Below are positions 1 through 60,126 of a stretch of 64,000 nt of DNA, one piece after another; the stretch's first letter is position 1, and each line of letters begins with the position of its first letter. The stretch is taken from NCBI RefSeq assembly GCF_004010195.1, contig NC_057718.1, positions 59,268,485 to 59,332,484 on the forward strand. The letters run 5' to 3'. Made by a program: the position numbers and the translations under genes. The notes under the pieces were generated by a model. The model ran no database searches. It was given only the letters and a program-made list of their open reading frames with translations, and was not told where the DNA came from. Origin of the DNA: Chiloscyllium plagiosum (taxonomy: Eukaryota).

Positions 1-207
1 CCACCTATCGCATTTCCAACGCCCCTCCCCCAAGTCCCTCCTTCCTACCTTTTATCTTAGGCTGCTGGACACACTTTCCTCATTCCTGAAGAAGGGCTCA
101 TGCCCGAAACGTCGATTCTCCTGCTCCTTGGATGCTGCCTGACCTGCGCTTTTCCAGCAACACATTTTCAGCTCTGATCTCTAGCATCTGCAGTCCTCAC
201 TTTCTCT
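1..207 (+). mobile_element. 3' end of a Penelope-like element, truncated by the window edge; contains an HHR motif
   Basis: Near-identical to the reverse complement of 38935-39110, which is attached to a PLE ORF. Confidence 0.85.
82..117 (+). ncRNA. Minimal type I hammerhead ribozyme motif
   Basis: CTGAAGA (86-92), extra A, stem II GGGC-TCAT-GCCC, GAAA (106-109), C-GTC; short imperfect stem I (attc/gatt). Confidence 0.7.
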
Positions 208-1729
208 CCATTCCTAAATGTCAACTCTAGAGTTCAAGACGCGAATCTTTGTTGTTCCACCTTCCTAACATCATCTGCAGGCAAAAGGTGAGAATTGACT
301 CTGATTCTCTGTTGTATCATTTCACCCCATGATTGCTTACTGAAGAAAAATAACTGAATGAAATATTTTCGATGATGTACTCTGTTCCTTGTCATCTCTT
401 GAGGAAAGTCTCATTTTACACAACTGAAATACATGTTGTCATGATGTTGCATTCTATGGACTATTAATCTTTAATTCCGTCAGCTGATTTATTACCCAGA
501 ACATTTGCATGGCATCTTAAATGAGCCAAGTCACTCTGCTTTAAAATGGCTGCAATAGCCATCTGACATAAAAGCTGCAAGGATTACAAAGAATTTCAAA
601 ATGGACGCCTAAACAACATTTAAGGAACTGGTTTGCATTAAAATGTTGGAACTGACAATAAACAAGAGAAATGTCCAGAGACTAAAGGAACCTTACCAAA
701 ATCCTTTAGGTATTAAACAGTTAAGAGGGCCTCACCATTTTGATGGCATCTTGATAGCTTTGATAATGAAAGATTGAAGCTCCTTTGCTAATATGGGTTT
801 TATCCATGATGTTCTAAGAGTCAGCTATCAAATAATCAAAACTCTTCCCTTGTGAAACGCTATAGTTAAAAATTTGTGTGTGGACTACAGAAGGCAATAA
901 CATTAAGACAACCTCCACGTGGGATAGAGAGCAGATGTCTGTTTCAGCATATTTGTGTTAAAAAGCTCTGAACATGTCACTATTACAAGTTGGAAAACAT
1001 CACAGGGATAGAGAATTAAACCACGTAAGAGGAATTTCAAGTATCACAGCACCCACTCTGGAAAAGGAATGATTGCAGTTTAAAAGAGACTATCGTTAGA
1101 TGACCGACTGGCTTGGCTGCCTCCCCAGCAAGTTCAAGACTAACAGCACAACATACTTATTATGGACTTTAACTTATTACTAATTCTACCTCACTTCACA
1201 TTCTGATTTCTGTTTGCTTTCATGTCTATATGCGTCTATGTTGTGGGATTCAGGATAGACTTCACCATTTAGTAATATTTATACTTCCAAACAAGTGACT
1301 TTTTTCAAAAAAAGAAACAAACTATTTGCTAATTCAAGAGACCGAGTCGGTTTGTTTCTTCATAGCTTCACAAATGGTCAAATATGTATTGAATTGAAAA
1401 AAAAATTAATAATTCAAACTGTTACACCAAACTTAGGAGTAAAGAGACAAGAATTTATTCACAACTTTACATATGTGACTTTCATCTTTACTGACTGGGC
1501 TGAATTCTGCCAGAACTAATTATCTGCCAACTTTAAGTGATTTGCAGATGACACACACTGTTAATTTTATATTAATTGGTGTTTAAATGTATACAAGTAG
1601 TTGAATTAACTGGAGATTAACCTGTTCCTTTAAAAAAAGAGGTATAAACTGGTTGTTTATTCTAAGAGATACAGGAATACAGGCCAACATTGTGATTGTG
1701 TGTATGTATAAAGATCAATTTTTTTTTAT

Positions 1730-2610
1730 TGTGAACTTAAATGGGAAAAGAACTTTTTTAACACCATGCCAAGAATTGCTAGACTTGTAAAAAAATTACT
1801 GGATCTCATTGTTAAGTTTGACAGCAATGGTGGAGAAGGGAAAAAAACAGCACAGAGCTGGGGTGGGTGCGCAGGGTAAGATTTGGCCAACAGCAGTTTG
1901 CTGATTAGTTTGTGCTAATTTTGACTAGTTGTGGATGCCAGAGGTCATCAGTCTGACAACAACTCTCTGATTGGCCCCTGGGTGACTGAACAGCTGGTGC
2001 CTGTGAGCGATACAGAAGCAGGTCTCCAGACCGGAACAATCAGTCTGTCAATTCTCTGCAGCAATGTAACCCAAGCCTGGAGACAGTCAGTTATTTTCTC
2101 CCACCAATTGCTATAAGCTGTTGCCTTGAAGCAGTAACTGAGACTCTTTACAATTAGAATACAAATCATGCTGTGCATCTTGTGAAGAATTGAAAGAATC
2201 CAGAAAGGTGATTGGAAAGGTCTTGGGAAGGAAGAACAACCAGCTCACCAACACATGTGAACTGATGCTCTTGAACTAAGATTCCCCTGTGTATTTTCCT
2301 TCACCCAAACCCCTTTCCTTTTGATTGGGTATGTGTGTAGGGATTTGAAAAGCAAAGTTAGAATTAGATATTTAACTATTAATTTATTGATAGTTCATAC
2401 TATTGTTTATCTGTAACCAGAAACTGCCTGTTTATATCAAACAATAGTTCTTCTTAAGTAAGGAGCCCAGTCAGTGGTTCCTGTTATCCTGATTCCATCA
2501 GACAGGTAATTTGGTGATTTTACATACTTTGATTAAATCTTAACTTTTGTGATGACACTGAGAATAGTAGGGATCAGGTGTCAGCGGAGTTTCCTAAGTG
2601 GGTCCATGCA
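1730..2610 (+). repeat. Putative old solo-LTR-like repeat
   Basis: Overall layout and 3' portion loosely resemble 33820-34600; no coding motif. Confidence 0.3.
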
Positions 2611-3640
2611 GGTAAAGTGCAAATCTGCAACTAAATGTTTATAAAAGTTATAAACATTTGCTCCAATTCTAACTTTCACATAAAAGATCCTCGAACATAC
2701 TAAATTTGGTGTGTGCTGTCTTCTCATTTGTTTCTATTTTAGATCGCCAGCATCTGCTGCACAGATGCCCATGAACTAACTTCCTTTCTATCGATTGTGC
2801 CTTGGAGTGTTCCTGCATCTCTTGGCAGATCTTGGAATGGCTCTACAGTCCCTAATGCCTCCCTGCTATGCTCTGGAATTATCATCTCAGGAAAGTAGCT
2901 GAATGGTATTCCTGCCTCTCAGTACAAACTGCCGTTTATTGTTAATCCACCATCTAAACTAGTTAGTCACCAGAAATTAAGAAGATTTGGCCCTGTCCTC
3001 AGTTGGGTCGGTTACAAGACATTGCCTGATGCCATCCTCTTGACTGAAAGCCTTTGATCATTCTGACCTGCATCAAATTTGCCATTCTATTCTTAAAGTC
3101 ATCTCTCAAAAATATGGGTCTGATTTTAATCTGCAAGACAGATAAGGGGAGTCAGGAAAATTTCAAGCTTTGTGCAACTACCTCAGAGGTCTAATCTTCT
3201 ATCTAAGGTTGAGGGTGAGCTGACACAGGAAACAAAATGTTTGGACACAGTCACAGGGGCTGCTGGCTGTTAGGAGGAGAGCTGGTTAAAAGGCCAGCAT
3301 TGATGCTGTTGGACTTCATCACAACTACAATAAAACAAAACTGCAGTCCTCACAGCCCCACCGCAGTATGTTGATTGTGCAGCCTCTTTCCCATCAGAAG
3401 TGCATCGGGAGCCAGAGCAATATAGAATAAGAACTCAGCAGTGCTAGGTTGATATAATTCTTCTCCCATAATGCCGTTACCATTCTCACTCACCTTTCAG
3501 CCTCGCTGTTAGGTGTGGATATCTCTCATAGGGACATGCCCATTGGATTTTGTGACCTACATGAAGCCTTCTTAGGCAAATTGTGGATCATTATCTGAAT
3601 GTCCAGGTTTGGAACTCCACAAGACAACAGTTTCAGATGT

Positions 3641-3741
3641 ATTCTGGATTAGTGGTGCTGGAAGAGCACAGCAGTTCAGGCAGCATCCGAGGAGCAGTAA
3701 AATCGACGTTACGGGCAAAAGCCTTTAATCAGGAATACAGG
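3641..3741 (-). mobile_element. Short PLE-derived element with a degraded HHR
   Basis: Reverse complement reads CTGATTA-AAGGCTTTTGCCC-GTAACGTC followed by the family tail gatgctgcctgaactgctgtgctcttccagca. Confidence 0.8.
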
Positions 3742-3769
3742 TGTATGACCATGCAGTCATTAGTCAACC

Positions 3770-10765: not shown

Positions 10766-11683
10766 CCTATGATTCAGTATCTGTTAGTCTATGGGGGTGC
10801 AAATTGACATTCTCACACCCCTGCATGAAAATGTGCTCCCTAGTTTGATTTCTGAAAGGTACATCTGATGTTTAATTGTCTTTTCCCACTTGGATAGAAT
10901 TTTACACAAAATTACGTCTGTCTGTCTCCCCCACCCACCACTTCAACCCTGCTGGCTTAAAAATACAGAGGGGAGTCCACCTCTGCTTTGCCAATCTGAC
11001 CCACACGAATTTTCTTGCTATATAACCATTAATAGGCTCAGGGTGAGATTTCTGCCACCGTAAGGGGGAAGTGCCCACCCTCTGAAAGCTGCAGGTCACA
11101 TGACATGAGCCAGCAGCTGCCTAAAGCTGGCATCACCTTTGGGAACAAGGGCTACTATTGGGATTCATGGGGAACATGAGGAACCATGGGGCTGCTGAGT
11201 CAGATAAATCCTCGGTTTCTGCTTGGTTGGCAGACCCCAATAAAGGTGGGAGTTGCCATCAGGAGGAACATGTAACTTGAGAAGTTAGCAGTGGTGGGTA
11301 GAAGACCTGGTATAATGCTGGTGAAGTTGTGCTGAACTACGTTAAGGCCAATGTACCCCCCTAGACATCTGATGTCAAAAACTGAACACAAAGTAGGATA
11401 TGACCAAATACAACCGAAGGAGCTCTTTCTCCTCTTTGCTATCCAGCCTCTACTGGATAAAGGACATGAATCCAATAGTATTTTTTGATTATATTTTTAA
11501 ATATTCTGTAAGTTTTGGAGGTTGGTGAATATGGTCATCAGGAATCCTTTGCTCCTCCAGAATTTCTAGCCTGTCACATTTATAATATTGTTTTGTGATT
11601 GGTTCGGCTTGGATTAAAAATAGATCACCTCACCTTTCTCTACACTAAGTTACATTTGCAATAATTGTGCCCAACATGTAATC

Positions 11684-11807
11684 CTGATGAAGGGCTTTTG
11701 CCCGAAACTTCGATTTTCCTGCTTCTCGGATGCTGCCTGACCTGCTGTGCTTTTCCAGCACCACTCTAATTTTGACTCTGATCTCCAGCATCTGCAGTCC
11801 TCACTTA
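11684..11807 (+). mobile_element. Short PLE-derived HHR element with a 16-bp TSD
   Basis: Starts at CTGATGA-A-GGGCTTTTGCCC-GAAA-CTTC; flanked by tgcccaacatgtaatc (11668-11683) and tgcccaatgtgtaatc (11808-11823). Confidence 0.85.
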
Positions 11808-13033: not shown

Positions 13034-13877
13034 AAGATTTGAAGCTCAGATTGAGTTTCAGGTTGTAAGTTTGCTCACTGAGCTTGTTTTCAGACGTTTC
13101 ATCACCATACTAGGTAACATCATCAGTGAACCTCCGGTGAAGCGCTGGCATTCTGTCCCACTTTCTATTTAAGAGTCTTGGTCTCTGGAGGTGGGTGATA
13201 TCATTTCTGGTTCTTTTTCTCAGAGGTTGGTAAATGGGGTCCAAATCGATGTGTTTATTGATGGACTTCTGGTTTGAATGCCAGGCCTCTAGGAATTCCT
13301 GTGCAAGTCTCTGTTTAGCCTGTCCTAGTTTTCTCAAAGTCATGTCCTTCTTCATTCGTATATAAAGACAGTAGTGATAGTCGGTCATGTTTTTTGGTGG
13401 CCATTTGGTGTTCGTGTATCCTGGTGGCTAGTTTTCTGTCTGTCTGCCCGATGTAGTCTTTGTTACAGTCCCTGCAGGGTATTTTGTAAATGACATTCGT
13501 TTGGCTGTTTGTTGGTATAGGATCCTTTAGGTTCATCAGTAGCTGTTTCAGTGTGTTGGTAGGTTTGTCGGCTATCATGATGCCAAGGGTTCAGAGAAGT
13601 CTGGTAGTCATCTCTGAGATGTCTTCGATGTACTTTAGTGTGGCTAGAGTTTCAGGGCGTGTTGTGCATACTTGTTTGAGTTTGTTGTTTAAGAATTGGT
13701 AGACTGTGTTTATCGGGTAACTGTTCTTCCTGAATATGCTTTAGGCATTTTTCTTCTGTTGCTCCTAGTTCCTGGTTGCTGCAGTATGTTGTAGCCCATT
13801 AAGATAATGTTCTGATGCAGCTCCATTTGTGGGTCTTGCAATGATTGCTTCTGTAGTTAAATATCTGGTCTGTATGT
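13034..13877 (-). mobile_element. Penelope-like element 3' part with GIY-YIG endonuclease
   Basis: ORF 13315-13578 NVIYKIPCRDCNKDYIGQTDRKLATRIHEH; ORF 13110-13388 EFLEAWHS..SINKH. Confidence 0.95.
13089..13130 (-). ncRNA. Minimal type I hammerhead ribozyme motif
   Basis: Reverse complement TTCA-CTGATGA-T-GTTACC-TAGTAT-GGTGAT-GAAA-CGTC-TGAA; stem I TTCA/TGAA, stem II with G-U pairs. Confidence 0.8.
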
Positions 13878-14144
13878 GCTAAACAGGCTAAACAGAGACA
13901 CACACGGGAATTTCTAGAGGCCTGGCATTCAAACCAGAACTCTGTCAATGAACACATTGATTTGGACCCCACTTACCAACCTCTGAGAAAAAGAACCAGA
14001 AATGATATCACCCACCTTAACAGACCAAGACACATAAATAGAAAGTGGGACAGAACACCAGCGCTTTCCCGGAGACTCACTGATGATGTTGCCTAGCATG
14101 GTGATGAAATGTCTGGAACCAAACCTGCCAGCTCAGTGAGCAAA
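13878..14144 (+). repeat. Inverted partial pLTR of the Penelope element, with a second HHR at about 14077-14116
   Basis: Reverse complement of about 13069-13325; CTGATGA at 14080-14086 and GAAA-TGTC at 14106-14113. Confidence 0.9.
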
Positions 14145-14249
14145 TAGACACTTATACATTCGGGTGGGAATCATGACTTCAATACTTACATGTGTTTTCT
14201 GAGGAGACTTAAGTGGGAATAACTTCAGAATAAGATATTATAACATTTT

Positions 14250-18450: not shown

Positions 18451-18969
18451 ATGAGTTGATTAATAGTGGGGAAAACAGCCCGGCTCAGAGCTTTCCCTGA
18501 ATCTTGGTTTGCATCTATACTGTTACAACCAGCCAATACTCCATAAGGAATTTAAACATATTGAGAACATATGTGCCAGTTTAACACTCTCATTCTTTTA
18601 ATCACTCTCAGATTGATGAGCCACAAGGGTAGTTGTTATGCTCCTTTGTGGGAATGGAAGTCTAGTTCAAGTATTCGTAACTTTTCTGGTCTTGACTTTG
18701 TATTTACTAAGATAATAAAAGCAATTTTTAAGCAACATAAAAGTTCTTTCCATAATAATCCGTTACTTTACAATTTTGATTCAGACATTAAGAATAATTT
18801 AATGTGCATCAAAAAGACTTTCTATTTTGTGACAGACTGACATGACTGTGAGTGTTTTATACATTTTCCCTCAAAGTTAGAGGCAGATGGTTATATGATT
18901 GGGCAGGAAGATGGCAGATAGCAAGCCTGCCACCTTTCCCCCTGCTCTGATTAACTCCAGAACGTGATG

Positions 18970-19222
18970 ATGTGGAGCTGCTGGTGTTGGACTGGGGTGG
19001 GCAAAGCCCAAAATCACATTACACCAGATTATAGTCCTAAAGATTTATTTGAAATTTGGAGCGACATTCTTTCATCAGTGCAGTGAAAGAGGGCATCTTT
19101 GATCTCTCAGCTATAAACTCTATGCCGGTGTGCCCTCTCTCTCTGCACCTGCACTCCGAAAGCTTGTGAATTCAAATAAACCTATTGGGCAATAACTTGG
19201 TATTGCGTGATTTTTGACTTTG
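18970..19222. mobile_element. Palindromic PLE-end-like element with HHR relics
   Basis: Arms 19003-19055 and 19170-19221 are reverse complements; CTGATGA on the minus strand near 19072-19078, ctccGAAAgctt on the plus strand near 19154. Confidence 0.6.
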
Positions 19223-20023
19223 GCTCAAATGTGCTGGCTTATTGACAAACGTCCCACCCAGTCTCAAATGGAGGTCCTTTGATGGCTAATTAATATTCAT
19301 TAATAAATAATGTATGTAAACAGAGGACATACCATACAAAAAGTCCAAAAAGGCAAAGCCTCTTCAGGTTGCTTGTGGGCTTCTGCCAGTTTGGGGGAGG
19401 AATGGGGCCCTCAGTGTCTGATCAAAAGACACAGCATTAAGGAGTTTGAGTGCTTTCTGAGAGTTGTCCTCCTGGCCTTTTGCTGCTAAAACCCCCCTGC
19501 CCGGTGGTCCTCACCCTGTCCTCTTGATCCTGAGACTCTGGTAGGTGCATTACCAGGTAATGCCACTGCTCCTCCAATGGTACTGCTTTTCTCTATTGAC
19601 CAGCAGCTCTTGGGCAGCAAATTTCCCAAATGTGGTATGCCTTCTTGAAAGGAAAGGGCTCTTGGCATCTTTCCAGCTGGTGGGTAAGATTCCCATCACC
19701 TGCATTAAATATCAGTCCATTAGTGAATTTGATGGTCATCACTAGCAGGGCTAATATGTGAAACTATTGGGTCAAAAATTGTCATTTAATGCTGCCTTGG
19801 TCTCACAATGTTATAACTAAAACTAAATTGTTCTGTTTCAGAAAAGTTACTATTTTTATACATACTGTTCCTTTTTTGATAATGAAATTTGCTGCAGAAA
19901 GGCAATTCTTCAGGCTTAATAATATTTTGTGTCACGTGCTGCTCAAAATGTGAGCTGATAATCTCTCAGCAACAGTATCCAGGAATTTGTGAACTGTACA
20001 ATAATTAAAACTAGGTAGATCCT

Positions 20024-20118
20024 TAGTCAAGAGTGTGGTGCTGGAAAAGCACAGCAGGTCTGGCAGCATCTGAGGAGCAGGAGAACCAATGTTTCGGGCA
20101 AAGGCCCTTCATCAGCAA
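20024..20118 (-). mobile_element. Short PLE-derived HHR element
   Basis: Reverse complement CTGATGA-A-GGGCCTTTGCCC-GAAA-CATT plus the family tail. Confidence 0.85.
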
Positions 20119-20541
20119 TGAGCATATTATCTCCTTAACCAATCAGGTTGGAGGATTGTGAAATAAACCAGACAATGATTAACATGGAAGTCTATGTTAG
20201 AGCAAATTCAACATCAAATCTGGTACAGAATGAAAATGTTTCTTAATGAGTCTTTGTGGGGCATGTTAATAAAATTGAGTTCAAAACACTGCAACACATT
20301 CTATCAGAGATCAGGAAGCTATCTGAACATGCCCTGTGACTAAATATATCTTAATCGATCACACTAAGGAATCATGAATAAACAGTGCAGAATCTGAAAC
20401 AGGAAGTGTCCCAAGGAATATTGAACTCAATGTCAAATAAAGAACAAAAGAGAGGGAAAGGAAAATGGGAGCAAGAGAGACAACAGAAACAGAAGAGAAT
20501 AATATTCAACAATAATTAAAATCTGAATAAATAAATTGGAT

Positions 20542-38014: not shown

Positions 38015-38930
38015 TGGACGATGGCCTACTGTGATAAAAAATCTGCCACGTACATTCAGATGCTTATCGCCTTAAATGAATGAGTTCAGTGTCTCAAAAG
38101 GTGCCTTCTTCAAGTATTAGTGCCCACAGCTCTGTGCCAGGATATAGTGTCACAATTACCTCAGAACAAACATGGAATGGAGTTAATGAGACAATTTGCA
38201 TGTGGTATTGTCCATTGCCAGATATTAACTGTGACATCAGAATTAGTGAGAGTATGTGTGGAATTCCAGAGGCACCAGCAACAGCAAAGTAGAACCCCTC
38301 AATACCCACACCAGACTCCATCAGTCCCCTAGTCCAAAATCCCCAGGGAACTGTTTACTGTGAATTTCCAATTATCACAGAGGTAAAGAACACTTCAAGC
38401 ACATCTGTGGCAGACACACTGAGTGTCATAGTCATCTATTGGTACACCTGATGAAATCATTTTTAACAATGGGCAGATTCTCAGGGATAAGTGTGGCATG
38501 TGATTTCCTCACCCAGAGATCATTTGATCTGGATAATGGTCTGCACTGTTAAATTGCTCATCCTGAATGTAGGATGATAAATCCCAAGATTTTTGTGTTG
38601 CCTTGTTGACTCTTCTAGATATACAGTTACCATTGCCAGCAGAGAGCATGTCTGGAAGGCAATGAGAAAGACTTCTGCCAAGACACAAAATTGTGAGATA
38701 CACAATACACTTCTCAAAACAAGGGTAGACGAAGATGCATGACTGGCAAGGAAATGCCAAACTACTTCATTATGCATTGGACAATTGGGGAAAGTCAAAC
38801 ATGCCTGAAAGGGAAGCTAATTACCTGCAGAAATTTCCAACGTACACAATGAGACAGGTTTTATGAAGTCACAGCACCTAACAAAGCAACTCTTAGGAAT
38901 AGAAGCCAACTAAGGAAAGTGTACAGTATG

Positions 38931-39978
38931 ACCTGAAAATGTGTTGCTGGAAAAGCGCAGCAGGTCAGGCAGCATCCAAGGAGCAGGAGAATTGAAGTAT
39001 CGGGCATGAGCCCTTCTTCAGGAATGAGGAAATGTGCCAAGCAGGCTAAGATAAAAGGTAGGGAGGAGGGACTTGGGGGACGGGTGTTGGAAATGCGATA
39101 GGTGGAAGGAGGTTAAGGTGAGGGTGATAGGCCGGAGTGGGGGTGGGGGAGGAGAGGTCAGGAAGAAGATTGCAGGTTAGGAAAATGGTGCTGAGTTCCA
39201 GGGATTTGACTGAGACAAGGTGGGGGGGGGAGGGGAAATGAGGAAACTGGAGAAATCTGAGTTCNNNNNNNNNNNNNNNNNNNNNNNNNNNNNNNNNNNN
39301 NNNNNNNNNNNNNNNNNNNNNNNNNNNNNNNNNNNNNNNNNNNNNNNNNNNNNNNNNNNNNNNNNNNNNNNNNNNNNNNNNNNNNNNNNNNNNNNNNNNN
39401 NNNNNNNNNNNNNNNNNNNNNNNNNNNNNNNNNNNNNNNNNNNNNNNNNNNNNNNNNNNNNNNNNNNNNNNNNNNNNNNNNNNNNNNNNNNNNNNNNNNN
39501 NNNNNNNNNNNNNNNNNNNNNNNNNNNNNNNNNNNNNNNNNNNNNNNNNNNNNNNNNNNNNNNNNNNNNNNNNNNNNNNNNNNNNNNTGGTGGTGGGATC
39601 TGTTTGGAGGTGGCGGAAATGATGACGGATGATACGATGTAAATGGAGGTTGGTGGGGTGGTAGGTGAGGACCAGTGGGGTTCTGTCCTGGTGGCGATTA
39701 GAGGGGCGGGGCTCAAGGGCGGAGGAGCGGGAAGTGGAGGAGATGCGGTGGAGAGTATTGTCGATCACGCCTGGGGGGAAATTGTGGTCTTTGAAGAAGG
39801 AGGCCATCTGGGTTGTTCGGTATTGGAACTGGTCCTCCTGGGAGAAGATGCAGCGGAGATGAAGGAATTGGGAATATGGGATGGCGTTTTTACAGGGGGC
39901 AGGGTGGGAGGGAGTCGGTCGGTTTATAGTAAACGTCCGTGTTGATTCGGTCGCCCGAGATAGAAATGGAGAGGTCTA
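38931..39978 (-). mobile_element. Penelope-like element, 5'-truncated, with a 9-bp TSD
   Basis: ORF MASFFKDHNFP..DRTPLVLTYHP (PLE thumb/linker); HHR-type end near 38990-39025 with GAAA mutated; TSD tacagtatg at 38922-38930 and 39979-39987. Confidence 0.88.
39265..39587. other. Assembly gap, 323 N
   Basis: Run of n. Confidence 1.
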
Positions 39979-40499: not shown

Positions 40500-41950
40500 T
40501 CTCATTACACTTGGATGTGATTATGCCAGCATTTGACTTAAAGTTATGGTGTTAGATAAACAGTGGAAAAGATGATAAGAAATAATTCAAAATGTTCTAC
40601 AAAAATACATTCCATTGAAAACCAAAATCTATGATAAAGATCCATCTATGCATTACCAATGAGCTTAATGTTAGTATTAGGTCAAAAGAGAATTATAATG
40701 TTGCAAAGACTTGTATTAAATTAGAGGATTGGGAGTATTTTAGAAACTAGACAATAGTAACAAAAAAAAAGTTGGGAAAAGAAGGAAGTAGTCAGAAATA
40801 TAAGAGATTTTATGTATGTGTTTGTGTATAAAGGAAGCAAGTAGCTAAAATAAACATTGGTCTCTCAGAAGCAGAGGAAGGAGAAATTATCATGGGCATG
40901 AGTAACTAAGAGATTGAATAAATATTATTTTGCCTGTCTGGACTATAGAAGAGACAAGTTACATGCTCAAAAGAAAACCCCAAGGAGATCATAACAGTGA
41001 GTAAATTAAAATAATTGATATCTGCAGAGAAACTGGAGAAATTCAAGGGATTAAAATCCAACAAATCCCCAGAGCCTGATGATCTAAATCTTAGGAGCTG
41101 TAAAAGAAGAAACTGCAAAGTGATGTGCTAGATTTGACATTCCAAAATTCCTTAAATTCTGGAATGGTCCCTGAAAATAGCAATTTACAAATGTAAAATT
41201 TATTTAAAAAAGGGAACCTCACGCCAGTTAGTCTGACATCTGTGTCATCAGGCATGTACTGGAACTTATTATGAAGTATATATCTCAATGTCCCTGGAAA
41301 AGCATGATATATGCTGAAAAATGTGTTGCTGGAAAAGCGCAGCAGTTCAGGCCGCATCCAAGGAGCAGGAGAATCGATGTTTCGGGCATAAGCCCTTCTT
41401 CAGGAATCATGCTTATGCCCGAAACATCGATTCTCCTGCTCTTTGAATGCTGCCTGATCTGCTGAGATTTTCCTGCAACACATCTTTCAGCTCTGATCTC
41501 CAGCATCTGCAGTCCTCACTTTCTCAAAGCATGATATATTTAGAACAAGTGAACATGGTTTTATAAAATTAAATCCTCCTTGCCCAATTTATTCCATTGG
41601 TTTTCCGGATATAACCTGTAGGATAGATGAAGAGGAATCAGCAGATGTTGGATACTTGGAGTGCTGGAAGGCATTTGGTGAGTTAGCATATGAAACGTTA
41701 ATACGAATCATAAAGGCTAAGAAGTTGGAGGTGATATTTTTAGCATGTATAGAGGATTGGTTAATGGACTGGAAGCAGATGGCAGATAAATGTGACATTT
41801 TTAGATGGGCATGCTGTGAGTAGTGAAGAGCAGCAAGAGTCCATAATAAGGCCTTAGTTATTTACAATCTACATTAGTGGCTTGGGCTAAGAGACAGATT
41901 AATATATGTAAGTTTCTGATAATACAAAACTGAGTGGAAAGTTACAGATT
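40500..41950 (+). mobile_element. Old CR1 ORF2 remnant, probably continuing 29850-33430
   Basis: GLKSNKSP.PD, PVSLTSV, and decayed HGF and KAF motifs. Confidence 0.7.
41313..41525. mobile_element. Palindromic PLE-derived HHR element with a 14-bp TSD
   Basis: Inverted arms of about 85 bp; TSD aaagcatgatatat at 41299-41312 and 41526-41539; minus-strand CTGAAGA-A-GGGCTTATGCCC-GAAA-CATC. Confidence 0.9.
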
Positions 41951-42429: not shown

Positions 42430-42550
42430 AAAGTAATGCAGATGCTGGAAATCTGAAACAAAAACAGAAATTGCTGGAGAAACTCAGCAGGTCTAGCAGC
42501 ATCTCTGGAGAGAAAGTAGAGTTAATGTTTCAGGTCCAGTGACTTTTCTG
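42430..42550 (-). mobile_element. PLE-end fragment, second family
   Basis: tgcagatgctgga..gctggagaaactcagcaggtctagcagcatc, similar to the PLE tail. Confidence 0.7.
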
Positions 42551-45049: not shown

Positions 45050-45984
45050 TGTACTCATTCTTCTTTTGGGGTTGCCGACTTTGCCAAAGAGACTGTGTAA
45101 TATCCTTGCCCATTGCACGAGGAAGAACATTCTACTGAATTGGAGGTCAGAAAAACCACCAGGTCTTATGGGGTGGCGTAGGCTGGTGATGGAGCATCTC
45201 CCCCAAGATTACCTCACAAGTATGGTGCACCACAAAACGGAACAGTTTTATAGGATGTGGCAGCCCTTTCTAAATTATATTGAAACTGACTTGTCAGCAA
45301 TATTAATCAGGGCCGTGGTATAGCTGTGGGAATCTTTATGGGCACCCATAGGGCCCCGGGAGAAGGAGACTGGAAAGAAAAGAATATGGGTACTGTAGGG
45401 GATACTCCCAGGGATGGGAGCCTCAGTGGAGGTATGATGAGTAAGATAGAATAAAATATTGAGATATTATTTAATTTAAGTTATTTGAATGTAGTTTAAG
45501 CTAGTATATATTTAATATGTTTGTAGTTTAGTTTTAGTTAAGTAAATATATTTGCTTTGGTAGAATAATGGATTGTTTTATTAACAATAGTACTAGGAGG
45601 AGAAAGTGAGGACTGCAGATGCTGGAGATCAGAGCTGAAAATGTGTTGCTGGAAAAGCACAGCAGGTCAGGCAGCATCCAGGGAACAGGAGAATCGACGT
45701 TTCGGGCATAAGCCCTTCCTGAAGAAGGGCTTATGCCTGAAACGTCGATTCTCCTGTTTTCCTGAAGAAGGGCTTATGCCCGAAACGTCGATTTTCCTGT
45801 TCTCTGGATGCTGCCTGACCTGCTGCGCTTTTCCAGCAGCACATTTTCAGCTAAAAATAGTACTATGCTTTAGCCTTGTTCTTTGTGCTTTTTTTTCTGT
45901 TTTGAAGGGTTTTTTCTTTATATATAAATGTTTTGTAAAAGATTTTAAAAAGCTTTTCAATAAAAATATTTATACAAAAAAAAA
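45050..45984 (+). mobile_element. L1-clade 3' fragment
   Basis: ORF 44946-45323 RKNILLNW..MEHLP..FYRMWQPFLNY is homologous to 28378-28530; AATAAA and poly(A). Confidence 0.88.
45596..45855. mobile_element. Palindromic PLE-derived element with tandem HHRs and a 10-bp TSD
   Basis: TSD aatagtacta at 45586-45595 and 45856-45865; HHR cores at 45719 and 45762. Confidence 0.9.
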
Positions 45985-49494: not shown

Positions 49495-51988
49495 TACAAA
49501 GAACAAAGGACAAAGAAAATTTACAGCCCAGGAACAAGCCCTTCGGCCCTCCAAGCCTGAGCCGATCCAAATCTACTGTCTAAACCTGTCGCCCACTTCC
49601 TAAGCATCTGTCCAGATGCATCTTAAATGAATCTACTGTGCCTGCCTCTAACACCTCTTCTGGCAATGCGTTCCAAACGCCCACCACCCTCTGTGTAAAG
49701 TACTTGCTGCATGTATCCCCCTTAAACTTTCCACCTCTCACCTTGAAAGTGTGACCTCTCGTTGCTGAATCCTTCATCCCTGGGAAAAAACTTGTCTCTA
49801 TCTACCCTGTCTATACCCTTCATGATTTTGTAAACCTCAATCAGGTCCCCCCTCAATCTCCTTTTTTCTAATGAAAACAAACCTAACCTACTCAACCTCT
49901 CTTCATAGCTAGCACCTTCCATACCAGGCAACATCCTTGTAAACCTTCTCTGCACTCTCTCCAAAGTATCCACATCTTTTTGGTAATGTGGAGACCAGAA
50001 CTGTACACAGTATTCTAAATCCGGCTGAACCAATGTCTTGTACAATTTTAACATGACTTGCCAACTCTTATACTCATTGCTCTGTCCAATGAAGGCAAGC
50101 ATACCATATGCCTTCTTAACCACTTTATCCACCTCTGCAGCAAACTTCAGTGTACAAAGAGCCTGCACTCCCAGATCTCTCTGCCCATCAACTTTTCCCA
50201 AGGCTCAAAGTCTGTGAGAAGATTTGTAGCTCGGGTACTCATTGTGGTTCTGTTCGCCAAGCTGGGAATTTGTATTGCAGACGTTTCGTCCCCTGTTTAG
50301 GTGACATCCTCAGTGCTTGGGAGCCTCCTGTGAAGCGCTTCTGTGATCTTTCCTCCGGCATTTGTAGTGGTTTGAATCTGCCGCTTCCGGTTGTCAGTTC
50401 CAGCTGTCCGCTGCAGTGGCCGGTATATTGGGTCCAGGTCGATGTGCTTATTGATTGAATCTGTGGATGAGTGCCATGCCTCTAGGAATTCCCTGGCTGT
50501 TCTCTGTTTGGCTTGTCCTATAATAGTAGTGTTGCCCCAGTCAAATTCATGTTGCTTGTCATCTGCGTGTGTGGCTACTAAGAATAGCTGGTCGTGTTCA
50601 ATTTTCCCAAGGCTCTTCCGTTCATTGTATAATTCGCTTTACAATTAATCTTGCCTAAATGCAACACCTCACATTTGCCTGGATTGAAATCTATCTGTCA
50701 CTTTTCCACCCAACTCTCCAGTCTATCTATATCCTCCTGTATTCCTTGACAGTCCCTTATGCTTTCTGCTACTCCACCAATCTTCGGGTCACCTGCAAAC
50801 TTTCTGATCATATTAACAGTGCCCTCTTCCAGATAATTTATGTATATCACAAACAACAGTGACCCCAACACTGACCCCTGTGGAACACCACTTTTCTCCA
50901 TTTTGAGAAACTCCGTTCAACTACTAGTCTCTGTCTCCTGTTGCTCAACCAGTTCTTTATCCACCTAGCTAGAACACTCTACACACCATGTAACTTCACT
51001 TTCTCCATTAATCTACCATTGGGAACCTTAGCATACACCATAGTAAAGTCCATATATATGACATCAACAGCCCCTCCTTCATCTATCAACTTGGTCACTT
51101 CCGCAAAGAATTCTATTAAATTGGTAGGGCACGATCTCCCCCGCATAAAACCATGTTGCCTATCTCTGATAAGCCCATTCTTTTCTAAATATTAATAGAT
51201 CCTATCCCTCAGTACACTCTCCAGCAACTTTTCCACTACTGCCGTCAGGCTCACTGGTCTGTAGTTACGCGGAATATCCCTACTACCCTTCTTGTACAGG
51301 AGGACAACATGAGCAACCCTCCAGTCCTCTGATACCACACCTGTACATAAGGATGCCACAAAGATATCTGTCAGGGCCCCAGCTATTTCCTCTCTCGCCT
51401 CCCTCAGCAACCTGGGATACACCCCATCTGATCCTGGGGATTTGTCCACCTTAATAACCTCTAGCCTACCCAACACCTCTTCCCTACTTATGTCAACGTG
51501 ATCTAGACTAACTAAACTTCTATCTCTAATCTCAAGATTCATCATGTTCCTCTCCGCAGTGAACACTGATGCAAAGTGATCATTCAGAATCTCACCCATT
51601 CTCTCAGGTTCGACACACAGCCTTCCTTCATTATCCTTTAGTGGACCAATCCTTTCTTTAGTTACCCACTTGCTTCTTATATAAGAATAAAATGCTTTGG
51701 GATTCTGCTTAATTCTGCTTGCTAAAGCTATTTTATGACCCCTTTTAGCCCACTTGATTCCTTGTTTAAGACTTGTCCTACTCTTCCGATATTCCTCCAG
51801 GGCCCATTCTGTTCTTAGCTGCCTAGACCTTATGTACACTTCCCTTTTCCTCTTGGCTAGTTGTACAATTTCTCCTGTCATCCACGGTTCATGAATCTTG
51901 CCCTTGCTAACCTTTGCCTTCAACGGACATGCCTATCCTGCACTATCTTTAACCTATCTTTGAAAGCCTTCCATATATCAAATGTGGC
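49495..51988 (-). mobile_element. CR1 LINE, 5'-truncated, interrupted by a PLE
   Basis: ORFs 51192-51923, 50698-50901 and 49722-50201 carry CR1 RT motifs. Confidence 0.96.
50207..50597 (-). mobile_element. Penelope 3' fragment with an HHR, inserted into CR1
   Basis: Homologous to 13034-13400; near-perfect TSD tcaa(c)ttttcccaaggctc on both sides; HHR GCA-CTGAGGA-T-GTCACC..GGGGAC-GAAA-CGTC-TGC near 50277-50317. Confidence 0.9.
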
Positions 51989-54379: not shown

Positions 54380-56230
54380 TGAGTATCGGGAGTTAATAGT
54401 ACAATAAAAGGAAATAGTGGATAAAATGAGCAAATATTTCCTTTTGTCCTCAAAACAAAGGGTACATGGAATGTTTGGTATTAACTGTAAATTAGAGGTG
54501 GACATGAGAGAGAAACTTGGTGAAATGACCAGCACAAGAGAAGTGGTGCTGCAGGAACTGATGGAGCTATTTGTGTTATTTTTTCAAAAATTGTTATATT
54601 CCAGAATGGTTGGATAACACTGGAAATTAAGAAGTATAACCCTTCTATTCAAGGTGGGGGAGAGGCAGAAACCATGAAACTTCAGGCAAGTTAGCTTGAT
54701 GTCTATTTTTGGGAAGGTGTTAGAATTGATGGTGAAAGAAATTGCATATCCAGAAAAATTCAAGGTCATTGAAAAGTTTAACAGAATTGAAGAGTGTGGT
54801 GCTGGAAAAACTCAGTCAATCAGGCAGCATTCAAGGAACAGGAGAATCAATGTTTTGGGCATAAAGATTCCTGATGAAGGGTTTATGCCCAAAGCATCTA
54901 TTCTCCTGCTCCTCAGATGCTGTCTGACTGGCTGTGCTTTTCCAGCACCACACTTTTTGACTCTGATCTCCAGCATCTTTGGTGCTCACTTTCTCCCTAA
55001 CATTTAACAGAGTTTGATAAAGGGAAATCATGCTTAATCAATTGTTGGAGTTCCTTGAAGAAGCAACAAATGCCTGAAATAAAGATGAGTCTGTAGAATG
55101 TACTATACTTGGTTTTATAGAAGGCATTTTATAAGGCGGCACATCACAGCTTATTGTAGAAACTGAAAGCTCCTGGTGTAGATGGTAACATATCAGCTTC
55201 ACAGAAGATCGGCCGACTGGCAGAACAAAGTACACAATGTGCCGTTGGCAGATTGGCAGAATATGATGAGTGGAGGAGTTCCATAGGGGTTTGTAAGTTG
55301 TAGGAGCCTCAAGCTTCTACAACTTACATCAATGCTTAGATGAGGGAAGCAAAGAACAGCACCAAGACAGACAAGAAAGTATAGTGTGAAGAACAAATAA
55401 AGTTGCAGATGGATAACTTCACATTTTACTACATTATACTCCATCTGTTGGCAAAAGTCTGGCAGATGGAGGATAATATGTTCAAATGTCAAGTTGTTCA
55501 CTTTGGCAGAAAGAATTAAAAAAACTGAGGATTATTTAACTAGAGAATGACTGCAGAATTCTGCAGAGGTATTTAGGGGTTCTGGTGTATGAATCACCAA
55601 ACACTAGTAAGTACAGCATATAATCATGAAGGTTATTGTGAGCTATCCCTTCATTATTAGAAAGATTGAACATTAAAGTAATGATGTTATACTTAATTTA
55701 TACAGGGCATTGATGATATTGCATCTTGAATACTGTTTGAAATTTCACTTTCCATATTTAAGAAAGAATGGGAATACGTTGGTGGTGATTCAGAAAAGGC
55801 TTAATACATGGATGAGTGAGTTCTTTTATGAGGTTAGGGCTGGTTTCTACTGGAATTTAGAGTGAGGGGCAACTTGCTTGAAGTGGATAATAACCTGAAT
55901 GTTCTTCTTAGGATGGACACAGTAAGGATGTTTATATTTGTGGGTGAATCCACAACAAGGGGACACTACTTTTACTCCAGGGTAGAAATGGGGAGAAATC
56001 TTTTGTCTCAGAGAGTTGTGCAAATCTGGACTGCTACATCACAAGGTGGTGGAAATGGGGGTCAGTATTTTTTAAATATTCAGGGGTGAAGAAATCCTTG
56101 TTAGGTAAGGGAATGAAGAGTTGTTGGGAGTAATGGGAATGTTGAATTTGAAACACAAGCTCATAAACAGCAATCTTATTGTAAAATGTTGAAGCAGACC
56201 GAATGATCTACTCCTGCTCCTATTTTGTGT
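54380..56230 (+). mobile_element. Old CR1 fragment
   Basis: Decayed RT (KGKSCL.N.LEF, WQM..N..KC.VVHFG) and 3' UTR. Confidence 0.8.
54790..54997. mobile_element. Palindromic PLE-derived HHR element
   Basis: Inverted arms; CTGATGA-A-GGGTTTATGCCC with GAAA decayed; flanked by tttaacaga (54777, 55003). Confidence 0.85.
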
Positions 56231-57479
56231 ATTCATATGTTCATAGGGGGAGCCAAGCCTCCCAAGAGGGTCCTGCCCAGATCTAGGCACATCCTCCTCA
56301 AGCTTGGACAACTGCAGACTTTGACATCATGGGCAGGAGTGAGGAGGTGGAGGTCTGGAGCACATCTGCAGTGTCCTCAGAAGAAGCTGCTGGGAGGTGG
56401 GGCATATCTGCCATTCTTCCACCCTGTCTTCCTGAGAGGAAAGAAACCTGGAGTAAGGTTGAGGTCATTTGTCTCCCTCTCACTTTGCTATAGATAGCTA
56501 GACCAATGGTTTATAGGTCAATAAACATATATCCAGCAGACATTAAGCTTTCTGGAGCTGGGTCTCCACAGCAGTCTCCAATCTCTCCAGGACACAGCCA
56601 AACGCATGCATGCAAGACTCAGCAGAGTACTGATAATATTGATAGACCCCCCCCTCTATCCTTTGATCCAGTTTATCAACAGCCTCTGATAAACCTATCT
56701 GCTATTTATGAACTCCTCTGTGCATTTTGATGACATCATTGATGGCCAAGTTTATGTGATCATCATCTTCTGCCAGGAGCTGAGCTGATGCCTGGTCTCT
56801 GGTAGGGTGAGGCACCTGAGGAAGTTTCTTCCTCAGCCAGCTGTAGTGTTGTGTCAGTGAGGTGGTCACAAACATGTGCTCCCAAATCTAATCTAGAAAG
56901 AGTACACACTGAGGTGAAAGTCTCTGAGCTGGTGACTTGTGAAGGATGCAGCTTAAAGTCTTGCCAATGCATTCCCTGAGAGTTCAGTCGTTTCCTCCTT
57001 GAGTTAGAGGTGGAGTTAAGAGTCTCCAATACTAGCTTCCACTTGCTAAAGGTTTACTAAATGTTGTTGGTACCTGCATTAGAGAACAGAGGGAATTAGT
57101 TGTCTAAGAGGGATCAAAATCTGTGTACAGTTACAATGAGATAATACTGGTGATAATGGAAGAACATTGCAGCTCAATGAAGCAAGCTGGAGTCCTTGAG
57201 GTCACTTCAAACCCCCATGAGCAGTTGTGCTGTACTCTGGCTAGATGGACCATTTCTGCTCGCATAGGAGTGAGTTCCCTGATGTCTGCAATTCCCTGTC
57301 AGTCTTGGTCCTCTCAATCTAATTTTGGGACAACTGTTCCTACAATGAGACAAAGCAAGGGACTGAGGATGATCCAAATGGACGGCAGAGCACTCCGTGG
57401 TGATGCAGAAGCAGAAGGTGAAGTGTCCCCAGTGAATTTGTGGGAAGTGCAATGAGCTGTCGGTGTTAGTATGAAAAAT

Positions 57480-59035
57480 TTGGAAGATCTGGCATCACCA
57501 ATGGGAAGAAAGCGGAGCTAATGTTTTGAGTCCGGTGACCCATCAACAGAAATATTAGCAGCTTGGAAAAGCTTGAAGCCAAAATTGGGGGAATGGGTGA
57601 AGGGGAGAGGTGAGTGGATCGATGGAGATGCAGCTCAGAGAAAGAGAGGTAAGAAAGGAGTGGGTAAACATGGAAATTATGGTTAGCAGGCCAGGCCAGA
57701 AGCAAAACTGAATAAGGGATATAAGACCTAAGAGTGAGAAAATGGGTGAGTTGTACTGAATGCAACACATTTCATGTGCTAATGGGCATTGGAGTATGTG
57801 TGGATGAGTGACTGCGCTAAAAGCATGTCATAACAGGACTGGGTGTGGGGGTGGGTAAAAACATGGAAGGGTAGAATCAGGCTCGAAAGTTATCAAACTC
57901 AATGCTGAGTCCTAACGGAAAATAAGATATTGTTCTTCGAGCTTACACTGCAGCAGGTCTGCAACAGAAATGTTGCCATAGGAACATGGTGGTGTGTTGA
58001 AGTGATAGGAAACTTAGGGTCATTTTTGCAGACAGAGTATAGGTGTCCTGCAAAGTGGTCATCCAGCATACACGATGTTGAGGAGATCACATTGTGAACA
58101 ACAAATACAGTACACTAAATTGAATGAAGTGCAGGCAATTAATGCTTCACCTGAAAGGTATGACTGAGGCCTTGGATGGTGAAGAGGGAGGAGGTAAATG
58201 GGCAGGTATTGCACCTTCTGTGATTGCATGGGAAGGTCCTGTGGGAATGTGAGGAGATGTTGTGAATGGAGGAGGAATGGAGGAAGAGAGTGTCCTGACG
58301 GAATGGTCCCTGAAGAATGCTGACAAAGGAGGGGAGGGGAGTAGAATATGTGTCTGGTTGTGGCATCCCACAGGAGCTGATGGAAATGGCTGCTTACAAT
58401 CTTTTGGACATGGGTATTGGGGGGTGGTAAGTGAGGAGGACCAGAGGGACCCTATCTTTGTTGTGGAAGAGATGGGAAAGGGTAAAGTCAGAAGTGTGGG
58501 AGATACATTGAACAGGGCTAAGGGATCTTTTGACCACAATGGCAAGGAATCCTTGATTGAAGAAAAATGAGAAATTTGGACATTTCTGACCCTCCTCCCC
58601 CCCCCCCCCCCCCCCCCCCCCATCACATGGTCCCTCCCCCTGCTGAAGGTGGCTTCATTACAACAGATATGACAGAGGTGGAGAAACTGGGAGAATAGGA
58701 TGGCGTCAAACAGGAAGCAAGGTGTGAGGATGTACTGTTGAGATAACTGTGGGAGTTGTGCATTTGTAATAGAAACAGAGATATCAAGGAAGAGAAGGGA
58801 GGATTTGGAGATGGACCAGGTGAAGGTGAGGCTAGGGTGGAAATTGGAAGCAAAATTTATAAGTTTTTCCAGTTTAGAACAAGAGTAAGGGAAGCAGCAC
58901 CAAAGATGTAATTGATGTATGAGAGAAAGATTTGTGCGGAGGGACCCAAGTAGGAATGGACAATGTTCCACAGGCCCCATTAAGAAACAGGTATAACTGG
59001 GGCCCATGCAGGTACCCATGACTATCCCTTTGATC
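57480..59035 (-). mobile_element. Old Penelope-like element (RT to endonuclease)
   Basis: MGTCMGPSYTCFLMG, INFASNFHPSLTFTWSIS..FLDISV, TFPCNHRRCNTCP linker. Confidence 0.9.
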
Positions 59036-59239
59036 TGAGGCTATGTTAGTGGTTTGGGAGGAAAATGTGAGAGAGAGCCATTGAGTAGACATTGATGCAT
59101 GTAATATTGGGAATTGTAGTTCATGAATCTTGGTGAGAGGCTTGTGCGGTGGCAGAGCGAGAGTGAATGGCAGCCTTGTAAAATGTGACATAGCTGAGAG
59201 AAAATGGTGGCACTTATAATTGCAAAGCACAGAAGATCA

Positions 59240-59431
59240 TTAACCTTCATCCTTCTCTGCAGTGCATTCTGCTTACTGTGGAGCACAACACTGACCCGAG
59301 TTGCTATGATTGTCCAGGGTCCTTTTGGTGGTCCAGAGAAAAAGGTACATTCCTTCTCTCCCCGGCCTGTCCACCAACACCTTCAGCTTCCTATCTGCAA
59401 AGTGGGGAGTAAACTTGCTTTTCTGGGCCAT
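59240..59431 (-). pseudogene. Harbinger-type Myb/SANT-like gene remnant
   Basis: MAQKSKFTPHFADRKLKVLVD resembles the ..P.F.D.EL..LV. start of Myb/SANT-like proteins; paralogue at 7160-7218. Confidence 0.55.
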
Positions 59432-59992
59432 GTCCTCAGTAACAGTGATCATGTGCCACTTGTGCGTAGCATCTGAGGAGCTGTGCAGCTCGGGTGAACA
59501 GCAGGGTGAGCAGTGGCCCATCCCAGCAGTACTGAACATGTCAGCCTTCTCTGCCACATGACTCAACAAAAAGGAGCGGAAGAGACCGTTTGCATAATTG
59601 ATGAGGGAAAGAGTGGAAGCTTGTGAGAGAGAAGTTGCTCTGAGCTACGCTGGGCCAGCTGCTATGAATTGCACTCACTAAAACACATTGACTACAAATG
59701 AGAAAATGCGTCAGTGAGTTTTTCTTTGTGTAATACACAATGCATCTCAAAAACGCCACTCTCTTTTCTCTTTTTTTTTCAATATACTTCAGAACAGGAG
59801 TAAAAAAGAATATGTTTGCTTCATAATGACTTCATGTTGTCACACTAAACGATGTAATCTTACAGCAATGTCAGCTTACATTTATGCAGCATCTTTAATA
59901 TTGTAAAATATATTCAGAAGAACTCTGAAGAAGTTTGGCACTGAGGATCTAAGGCAATATTAGTGGATGCGATCCAATTCTTGGTCAAAGAA

Positions 59993-60126
59993 AAGCAAAA
60001 TACTGCAGATGCTGAAAACCTGAAACAAACTTTCAGAATACTAGTGAACTGAAGAACAGTCACAATGGATTCAAAATAGTAACTCTTTTTCTCCCTTCAC
60101 AGATGATGCCAAACTCTGTGTTTGTC
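59993..60126. mobile_element. Short PLE-end-derived element with a 14-bp TSD
   Basis: TSD tcttggtcaaagaa at 59979-59992 and 60127-60140; CTGAAGA relic near 60049. Confidence 0.7.

Follow-up and report, generated by a model that had tools for sequence, protein, structure and literature searches.

The small hammerhead-bearing units of the Chiloscyllium plagiosum genome are probably TSD-flanked insertions of PLE ends, made by internally primed reverse transcription that ran off the capped 5' end of uncut RNA. The hammerhead ribozyme (HHR) motifs of the window, i.e. the whole stretch of 64,000 nucleotides analysed, sit in the terminal repeats of four PLE families, A to D. The units are of PLE origin, carry TSDs and have two alternative 3' ends; their 5' ends pile up at the HHR front edge in families A and C and are scarce at the ribozyme cut site, a G is in excess at the 5' edge, and the ribozyme helices covary. 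Most of the tiny units are 5'-truncated PLE insertions with TSDs and the PLE tail, not retrozymes, and the HHR motifs themselves are of a known kind, published PLE end pieces.

Hammerhead motifs in the ends of four PLE families

The initial annotation listed eight intact HHR motifs (86+, 11684+, 13126-, 14080+, 41403-, 45719+, 45762+ and 50313-) and all eight are present, each comprising CUGANGA, a single additional nucleotide, helix II, GAAA and NUH. A descriptor (CUGANGA, an optional extra nucleotide, helix II of at least 4 bp, GAAA-NN-UH) gave 8 matches in the window vs a mean of 0.05 (maximum 1) in 60 order-1 Markov controls; it accepts 20115- and fails on 50313-, where a single A.G mismatch interrupts helix II. 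The ACGU palindrome of helix III is retained in 5 of the 8 intact motifs (86, 13126, 45719, 45762 and 50313) and gone from 11684, 14080 and 41403, while a G.U pair closes helix II in 13126, 14080 and 45719. The six decayed copies that had been proposed (3732-, 19078-, 20115-, 39021-, 54871+ and 60049+) are genuine homologues, and two further ones, at ~42553- and 57549-, had been overlooked. Distinct helix II types with covarying pairing were also correctly recognised, but we find four of them instead of three. The loci are given below with their strand (a dot where no single strand applies).

1..206 (+): 3' end of family A (Neptune-like PLE); the 3' UTR is rich in pyrimidines, the min-HHR is complete (C3 at 86, cut predicted after 113) and the long end has the tail
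3651..3741 (-): older subfamily of A with a short end, its HHR (C3 at 3732) decayed
11682..11806 (+): solo stub of family A that spans HHR front edge to tail, with an imperfect TSD and without the helix III palindrome, which it has lost
13070..13512 (-): left arm of an inverted pair of family B (Poseidon-like), in which a GIY-YIG remnant leads into the HHR at 13126
13869..14144 (+): the right arm belonging to that family B pair, with a CpG-decayed HHR at 14080; the two arms are 240 nt and 89% complementary
18967..19226 (.): decayed inverted pair of family C; C3 is at 19078 on -, the + arm has no CUGANGA, and one of the arms bears the tail
20025..20122 (-): solo stub of family A with a short end and a partly decayed HHR at 20115
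38930..39975 (-): longer copy of family A with RT C-terminal remnant (76% identity to the RT piece of genomic copy L027), N gap, 3' UTR, decayed HHR (C3 at 39021) and short end
41313..41525 (.): palindromic insertion of family A whose arms meet at the HHR front edge; one arm bears the tail, the 14-bp TSD is perfect and a G stands at -5 of the HHR at 41403-
42437..42548 (-): family D decayed arm, absent from the initial annotation
45599..45852 (.): family A palindromic insertion, tail on left arm, 14-bp TSD with one mismatch; a 43-bp partial tandem yields its two HHR motifs (45719 and 45762)
50190..50596 (-): family B copy, endonuclease C-terminus reading through the HHR (C3 at 50313); A9, extra U and G10.1 together read AUG
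54782..54996 (.): older palindromic insertion of family A; its HHR at 54871 is decayed and has a G at -5, and its 12-bp TSD contains one mismatch
57472..57550 (-): another decayed arm of family D, likewise newly found
59987..60129 (.): decayed insertion of family D, in which an inverted remnant of the tail is followed by an HHR remnant at 60049 on +

A run of N lies upstream of the window, before the copy at 1..206.

The Rfam scan that had been suggested as a check returned 8 matches at E <=10 in the window, none of them to a hammerhead family. The best ones, to miRNA models, are far below threshold and their fit reflects the palindromes. Minimum-energy folding of three window copies, a method uninformative for the core geometry, gave no hammerhead dimer.

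Families A to C are linked to GIY-YIG sequence, and family D was placed by homology to A, without an ORF link of its own. Long family A copies carry RT motifs (recognised by eye), a C-x4-C-x2-C linker and a GIY-YIG domain (Pfam PF01541, E 2.7e-5, above cutoff); the ORF starts ~170 bases after C3. In L003 and L004 the linker lies between RT and endonuclease and is of the Neptune type, CX2-5CxxC; the Neptune placement of family A rests on this motif as given in the accessible text of PMC8557442, and is compatible with Nematis too. Family C has a GIY-YIG-like frame upstream (pairwise E 1e-5) and endonuclease C-termini are present in the arms of family B (from motif or pairwise similarity), while the RT fragments, the family B piece and the family C piece had no Pfam match. 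The A subfamilies, B, C and D each have longer copies extending into common upstream sequence. All the hallmarks of endonuclease-positive PLEs were found: 5' truncation, inverted 5' copy, optional tail, partial tandems and TSD.

[quoted passage not shown] That HHR motifs are present in very high copy number and moved by PLE machinery, as had been proposed, is supported by this extrapolation and by the homology to PLE ends. In the same accessible text, metazoan PLE pseudo-LTR min-HHRs share with the present motifs the lack of a real helix III, a palindromic 15.2-16.2, the extra nucleotide after A9, G10.1-C11.1 and a U3-A8 variant, and likewise form many consensus families, mostly as single motifs from truncated PLEs, with opposite-strand pairs; neither sharks nor 5'-end positions are mentioned there. 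Our literature search, with Repbase/Dfam and most subscription papers outside its scope, retrieved no report of PLE hammerheads in sharks, nor of a strong-stop or cap signature for PLEs. Retrozymes and PLEs in one chondrichthyan species are reported in the accessible text of a recent preprint (Li, Clavereau and Pollet 2026, bioRxiv 10.64898/2026.07.22.740005), the supplements of which may list the same shark families.

Insertion structure and 5' ends

TSDs flank 18 of 52 non-palindromic stubs vs 4 of 259 controls, and 36 of 56 tight inverted pairs. The insertions end at either of two 3' ends, with or without the tail. In inverted pairs the tail is on exactly one arm (38/44 for A, 13/13 for C), and the association of one long with one short end in each palindrome is far above its chance frequency. 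The joint is unique in 59 of 78 tight palindromes. Three joint types recur, and we considered them as replicated lineages; as they have no common arm-specific changes and are spread over several subfamilies, this was rejected and they are treated as recurrent microhomology joins.

The 5' ends were located relative to C3 (position 0). Among young family A arms of the evenly spaced stretches, 37/60 end in -14..+9 and 2/60 in +10..+28. The pile-up is broad and not at a single base; per base, ends are 5-fold more frequent in it than in -15..-120 (Poisson P 7e-15). For family C, 26/32 ends lie at the HHR front edge, while family B has no pile-up (2/25). The cut site accounts for 1/60 ends of young A arms, and for 0-1 starts per 100 among the copies listed (hand count). 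An apparent second peak at +28..+34 proved on inspection to consist mostly of deletions and inverted joints.

Genome-wide, copies that lack the element's own C at -5 have a G there in 4,442 of 7,468 A2 cases (59%) and in 838 of 1,426 A1 cases (59%), vs 26% from composition; for family D the base is G in 42 of 100 among the matches listed (hand count). At distant truncation points a G precedes the end in only 4/15. Of 8 cases resolved by their TSD, four have the G outside the target sequence; in the other four, as in several inverted joints, it may derive from the target or from the other arm. A jump to the 5' end of the cleaved RNA was rejected as the source of the G because A1 has the same excess despite different post-cut bases. 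In L1 an untemplated 5' G has been interpreted as a copied cap (PMC9341517, accessible text).

The A at -4 lies within an initiator-like YYANWY in families A and D, and families A, C and D have an A/T-rich box ~30 bases upstream. Of the raw-read runs, X21 (single-cell poly-A) alone was informative: in its 2,408 and 3,609 reads, obtained at two stringencies, neither starts nor ends accumulate at -4 or at the cut site, 94-95% of the reads continuing into unlike flank; X22 gave 0 reads, and Logan contigs (X2, X6) cannot show ends.

We propose that reverse transcription is primed inside the RNA, ~90 or 130 bases from its start, and would run off the capped 5' end of the uncut transcript, which likely begins with the first base of ribozyme helix I. 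The extra G at the 5' edge of the stubs is likely the mark of the copied cap. Palindromes would join two short cDNAs, or one folded back, with one from each priming site. In vitro, an anole PLE has two internal priming sites, uses uncut RNA as its main substrate and nicks both strands (PMC11167929). The HHR would be under selection in active source elements, and its cleavage, if it occurs as a protein-assisted dimer, would remove the first ~32 capped bases and withdraw that RNA from the insertion pool; according to the accessible text of bioRxiv 2026.07.22.740005, 8 of the 9 frog dimers tested did not cleave. A few composites have replicated, and may have been transcribed later and reinserted in trans, as mini elements without coding capacity. 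Composite lineages 1 and 2 extend upstream of -4, thus their RNA cannot start at -4.

A wider reading, which we put forward only tentatively, would make the HHR of Neptune-like PLEs the capped transcript's first 35 bases and a self-decapping switch, the several hundred thousand stubs fossil strong-stop cDNAs with the cap as extra G, and the palindromic joins the founders of MITE-like RNA-mobilised mini elements. The open questions addressed here are the role of the PLE hammerhead and the origin of inverted and tandem PLE insertions. With about a million arms in the genome, template ends become readable from DNA alone, and base-level predictions follow for CAGE, cleavage and in vitro priming.

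The 5' boundary could also be made at the DNA level, if the PLE endonuclease cuts at an ATT-like site just before the HHR, either in the new cDNA or in a resident copy, or else if the RT stalls after it has unwound the ribozyme. The breadth of the pile-up fits such a boundary, composites demonstrate that fixed ends need no start site, and the anole PLE endonuclease favours 5'-ATT-3' beside the ORF-pLTR junction (PMC11167929), family A having ATT at -4..-2. We nevertheless consider this unlikely: families C and D have a pile-up or G excess at the same place without ATT, a DNA cut leaves the untemplated G unexplained, and a structural stall is expected 3' of helix II (+20..+28), where ends are rarest.

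The insertions resemble those of the green anole Poseidon element PAc (Frangieh et al. 2024, PMC11167929), which likewise has two 3' ends ~40 bases apart (the tail) and insertions from uncut RNA; its start codon within the HHR, at the start of helix II, has its counterpart in family B, whereas families A, C and D have no AUG there. The main text of that paper reports no 5'-end pile-up with an extra G.

Covariation of the ribozyme fold

The initial annotation described the PLE ends as carriers of minimal type I HHRs whose helix III is palindromic, and descriptor matches and family consensuses confirm this. The extra nucleotide follows A9 in 73 of 73 descriptor matches, and the 15.2-16.2 palindrome pairs in 57 of them. 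The palindrome is ACGU in A, B and D2, and AGCU in C; D1 copies mostly have ACAU, probably by CpG decay. Helix II of family A has 4 bp. Helix I has 4 bp in A1, D1 and D2 (D2 from 2 non-palindromic copies) and 3-4 bp in B and C; in A2 and A3 its third pair is a U.U mismatch, and the commonest young subfamily has a U.U mismatch within a 4-bp helix I.

Consensus building, which had also been recommended, agrees with a constrained ribozyme: in nine subfamily groups the core is preserved, with compensatory changes in helix I, in helix II and in the palindrome of helix III. In one subfamily (4 loci) U3-A8 replaces C3-G8, a swap known from Schistosoma PLEs (PMC4209133, accessible text). The compensating changes and this swap point to selection on the fold among source elements. 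We do not claim selection on single copies, since the advantage of the core over the rest is confined to A/T sites once bases are matched (9/525 vs 46/954 mismatched, P 0.002; G/C sites 11/225 vs 41/742, P 0.87); a first test (2.7% vs 8.4% mismatch) was confounded by indels and base type.

The same compensating changes around a kept core, together with the U3-A8 swap, make it improbable that the motifs are inert passengers conserved by promoter or protein-binding constraints and not by self-cleavage, even though helix I is weak, no cut-site ends are seen in DNA or reads beyond the counts above, insertion in vitro needs no cleavage (PMC11167929) and Naiad PLEs spread without canonical HHRs (PMC8557442, accessible text).

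Arrays and replicated composites

The initial annotation had seen in the motifs a retrozyme-like system. For most units this does not hold: the sampled stretches contain no arrays, copies do not start at the cut site and longer copies exist. It stands for a minority, two replicated composites and two short arrays.

As a general account, small HHR units self-cleaved out, circularised and reverse-transcribed as independent non-coding replicons are very improbable, the more so as 118 evenly spaced 10-kb stretches yielded no HHR tandem array (the sole array-like match being an HHR-like match within an unrelated 30-bp satellite), the window has none except the 43-bp partial repeat, copies scarcely begin at the cut site and palindrome joints are mostly unique. 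In its favour, retrozymes homologous to PLE terminal repeats are reported, the chondrichthyan included (accessible text of the preprint), and the head-to-tail arrays L134 and L161, found through a junction pattern outside the evenly spaced sample, have 3-4 units with a period of 205-224, one of them with an identical joint twice; but successive units of L161 have differing joints. Animal non-LTR retrozymes, as the accessible text describes them, share with the present units the type I HHR, homology to PLE terminal repeats and dependence on PLE proteins, but are tandem units each with an HHR, and such arrays are rare here.

As in the PLE pLTR insertions of the accessible texts of Arkhipova et al. 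2013 (PMC3846280) and Craig et al. 2021 (PMC8557442), the ends are inverted head-to-head, with a single-end tail and TSDs, and TATA and Inr-like motifs in the pLTR and non-autonomous derivatives (MRC1, Chlamydomonas) are common to these systems, pLTR-framed units being mobilised in trans in those texts. Unlike there, most insertions here are little more than ends, and two inverted composites have spread as units. These two, seen at 13 and 4 loci, form a non-autonomous minority copied as non-coding units; they are ~165-255 bp long and purely inverted, not tandem.

Hammerhead motifs in the window and across the genome

Positions in the elements are counted from C3 of the hammerhead ribozyme (HHR; the C of CUGA is 0), the predicted cut of family A lying between +27 and +28, and an arm is a single copy of the HHR-bearing end on one strand. 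The eight motifs called intact and the six called decayed in the initial annotation are all present in the window, where the minimal-HHR descriptor has 8 matches vs an average of 0.05 over 60 Markov controls. In five of the eight motifs called intact, helix III retains its ACGU palindrome, which is gone from the other three. A search of the window with Rfam found no matching hammerhead model. The HHR motifs are real and abundant. The retrozyme label, also proposed at the outset, suits a small minority only (replicated composites and the arrays of loci L134 and L161) and not the rest, the evenly spaced sample of the genome containing no arrays of HHR units.

Two palindromes of the window have sub-threshold Rfam scores as miRNA precursors:
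41352-41452, palindrome
45694-45792, palindrome
Such hairpins could give double-stranded or small RNAs within host transcripts, or false miRNA annotations.

The abundance estimate is based on 99 stretches of 10 kb each, evenly spaced and with 951,718 non-N bases in total; the one next to the window was excluded. The descriptor matched 73 times, always with the extra nucleotide (73/73), and profile searches found 333 arms (184 of family A, 75 of D, 48 of C and 26 of B), which occur in 88 of the 99 stretches and occupy 3.3% of the bases. Roughly extrapolated to the 3.56-Gb genome, this gives some 1.2 million arms and some 270,000 descriptor matches; a single exact young core pattern has at least 55,871 genome matches.

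Carrier elements and conservation of the fold

Going upstream, long family A copies show a pyrimidine-rich 3' UTR, a GIY-YIG domain (PF01541, E 2.7e-5), a C-x4-C-x2-C linker and RT motifs; the linker, as described in parts of PMC8557442, suggests a Neptune-like Penelope-like element (PLE). Downstream of the tail, the optional extra 3' end, the element runs on into the 5' body (702 exact junction matches), in which, judged by eye, the reading frame opens some 170 bases past C3. In family B the arms contain endonuclease C-termini whose frame is open through the HHR, and an AUG composed of A9, the extra U and G10.1 stands where helix II begins, like in the anole Poseidon element (PMC11167929). 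Family C is marked by a GIY-YIG-like frame, for which no Pfam match was found, by a (CA)n tract and by a long UTR rich in A/T. In two family C loci (L303 and L304) the (CA)n-rich tract separates the endonuclease frame from the 3' UTR, upstream of the end; microsatellites may arise from it. Downstream of the cut, family D shows homology to family A, and its longer copies reach no ORF. Because N runs are frequent in long young PLE copies (L003, L004, L005, L012, L027, L030 and window 38930-39975), full-length elements are poorly represented in the assembly. The window also contains an old remnant:
58147-59040, minus strand, PLE-type RT, 36% identical to a family A RT piece, no HHR end assigned

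Nine subfamily groups, chosen by non-core motifs, were compared. CUGANGA, GAAA and UH are kept in all of them while the helices covary, so that the refuting outcome named in the initial annotation, a core no more conserved than its flanks across family consensuses, does not apply. Helix I is AUUC/GAAU in subfamily A1, AGUU/AACU in D1, AGCU/AGCU in D2, CAC/GUG in family C, and GCA/UGC and UCA/UGA in family B, with a U.U mismatch in A2 and A3. Helix II differs in sequence in every family with its pairing preserved, the family C comparison being blurred by about 24 of 70 rows that show the palindromic helix II from the wrong strand; helix III carries an ACGU or AGCU palindrome. At four D2 loci (L052, L069, L086, L120), whose 4-bp helix I matches, U3-A8 replaces C3-G8, a swap reported for Schistosoma PLEs in PMC4209133. 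Inside individual copies, preservation of the core does not clearly exceed that of the matched flank, and therefore selection acts on the source elements.

The 5' boundary and the origin of small units

The small units have two 3' end positions, about +86 and about +126, which are those of the PLE tail and correspond to two RT start sites seen in vitro (PMC11167929). Target-site duplications (TSDs), mostly 12-17 bp, frame 18 of 52 non-palindromic stubs (vs 4/259 in the control) and, among tight inverted pairs, 36/56. One long and one short arm are combined in 38/44 A pairs and 13/13 C pairs, where about half would be expected if ends were chosen independently; in 59 of 78 tight palindromes the joint was seen once only.

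For the 5' side we took 118 evenly spaced stretches and used the 60 young family A arms in them that are anchored 3' of the cut. Ends fall in -14 to +9 for 37 of the 60, in +10 to +28 for two (one of them at the cut), and in -30 to -15 for none. Per base, ends are 5 times as frequent in -14 to +9 as further upstream, and 23 times as frequent as between the HHR and the cut. The boundary accounts for 26/32 ends in family C and 2/25 in family B. Hand counts among the genome matches listed point the same way: element sequence is lost within 15 bases before C3 in 59/100 and, in a separate listing, within 15 bases before the cut in 7/100, at most one being at the cut. Insertion of cut RNA would hardly ever be the source of these copies.

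Copies that lack the element's C at -5 have a G there in 4,442/7,468 cases for A2, in 838/1,426 for A1 and, by hand count among the matches listed, in 42/100 for D; composition predicts 26%. The columns flanking -5 average near 28% G over 30 loci (one column up to 48%), and distant truncations have G in 4/15 cases where the element has C. Among eight TSD-resolved cases the target copy is without the G in four; in the other four the G is possibly target-derived. The A at -4, first base of helix I, sits in families A and D within an initiator-like YYANWY. About 30 bases upstream lies an A/T-rich box, TATA-like in D and C and a non-canonical TTTATC in A. PMC2377424 and PMC3846280 place a start site or TATA/Inr-like motifs within the terminal repeats of fly and rotifer PLEs, and PMC9341517 reads the untemplated 5' G of L1 insertions as a copied cap.

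Most likely, small units arise by copying from a capped transcript whose first base is that of helix I. The target would be nicked by the PLE protein, priming would occur at +86 or +126, and reverse copying would proceed for some 90 or 130 bases before running off the RNA 5' end, a C often being added opposite the cap. Joining of the cDNA to the target would leave a solo stub, and joining to a second cDNA or to its own fold-back copy a palindrome. A jump to another RNA position may yield partial tandems, e.g. L145, L151, L154 and L160, with a junction between the 5' body and G-ATTCC; longer copies would come from priming within the downstream repeat. The HHR, if it cuts, would strip the cap and the first 32 bases from the transcript.

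Among the sequencing runs listed as containing the stretch, none is recorded as RNA. In one raw single-cell poly-A run, which carries the species label of a DNA run of that list, 2,408 reads match, on both strands, 94% of them continuing into unlike flank; starts and ends form no pile-up in these reads, and loose read ends coincide with genomic boundaries of copies, -4 included. These reads are copies inside host transcripts, silent on start site and cleavage.

Replicated composites, arrays and neighbouring repeats

By hand count, two joints recur among the first 100 of 1,426 A1 matches, and two loci hold arrays:
L348-L360, composite lineage 1, 13 loci at different sites, one inverted arm in common (74 bases to -4)
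L361-L364, composite lineage 2, 4 loci with different flanks, palindrome plus extra HHR, at least 7 private changes
L134:1400-2250 (approximate), array of 3-4 terminal-repeat units joined to 5' body pieces, framed by one TSD
L161:3280-3900 (approximate), array of 3-4 terminal-repeat units joined to 5' body pieces

Lineage 1 has its own TSD at 9/13 loci, a left-arm variant common to 6/13 and found in 0/41 other A1 arms, and a right flank common to two of the 13; lineage 2 has a TSD at 2/4. In both inverted composites the left end is fixed at the tail end and the right end is variable. Each lineage was copied from a single composite source; in proportion to all 1,426 matches, about 185 and 57 copies would be expected. 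The arrays fit the definition of a retrozyme given in bioRxiv 2026.07.22.740005.

PMC4209133 describes minimal HHRs in PLE ends, their high numbers as single motifs left by truncated elements, and pairs on opposite strands; tail, inversion and TSD are covered by PMC3846280 and PMC8557442. The preprint's available part presents retrozymes as PLE derivatives, one chondrichthyan included; in the part of PMC6155905 at hand sharks are mentioned only for the name. The literature searched, with part of the preprint's main text and without its supplements, holds no report of the 5' boundary with extra G, nor of replicated palindromic composites. What is added is a base-level, testable view of the 5' end of the PLE template.

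Other repeats of the window are:
9415-9587, 14249-14542, 15828-16211, 20532-20838, 48115-48434, 52065-52411 and 60295-60611, dispersed repeat of about 310 bp
25277-27381, 27443-28378, 30339-32020 and 49611-51932, broken LINE frames
The former is probably a tRNA-derived SINE, presumably HE1/V-SINE-like; the latter we take, from their translations, to be L1/Tx1-like endonuclease-RT and CR1-like pieces. Elsewhere in the genome, L082:2860-8251 consists of about 182 tandem copies of a 30-bp unit.
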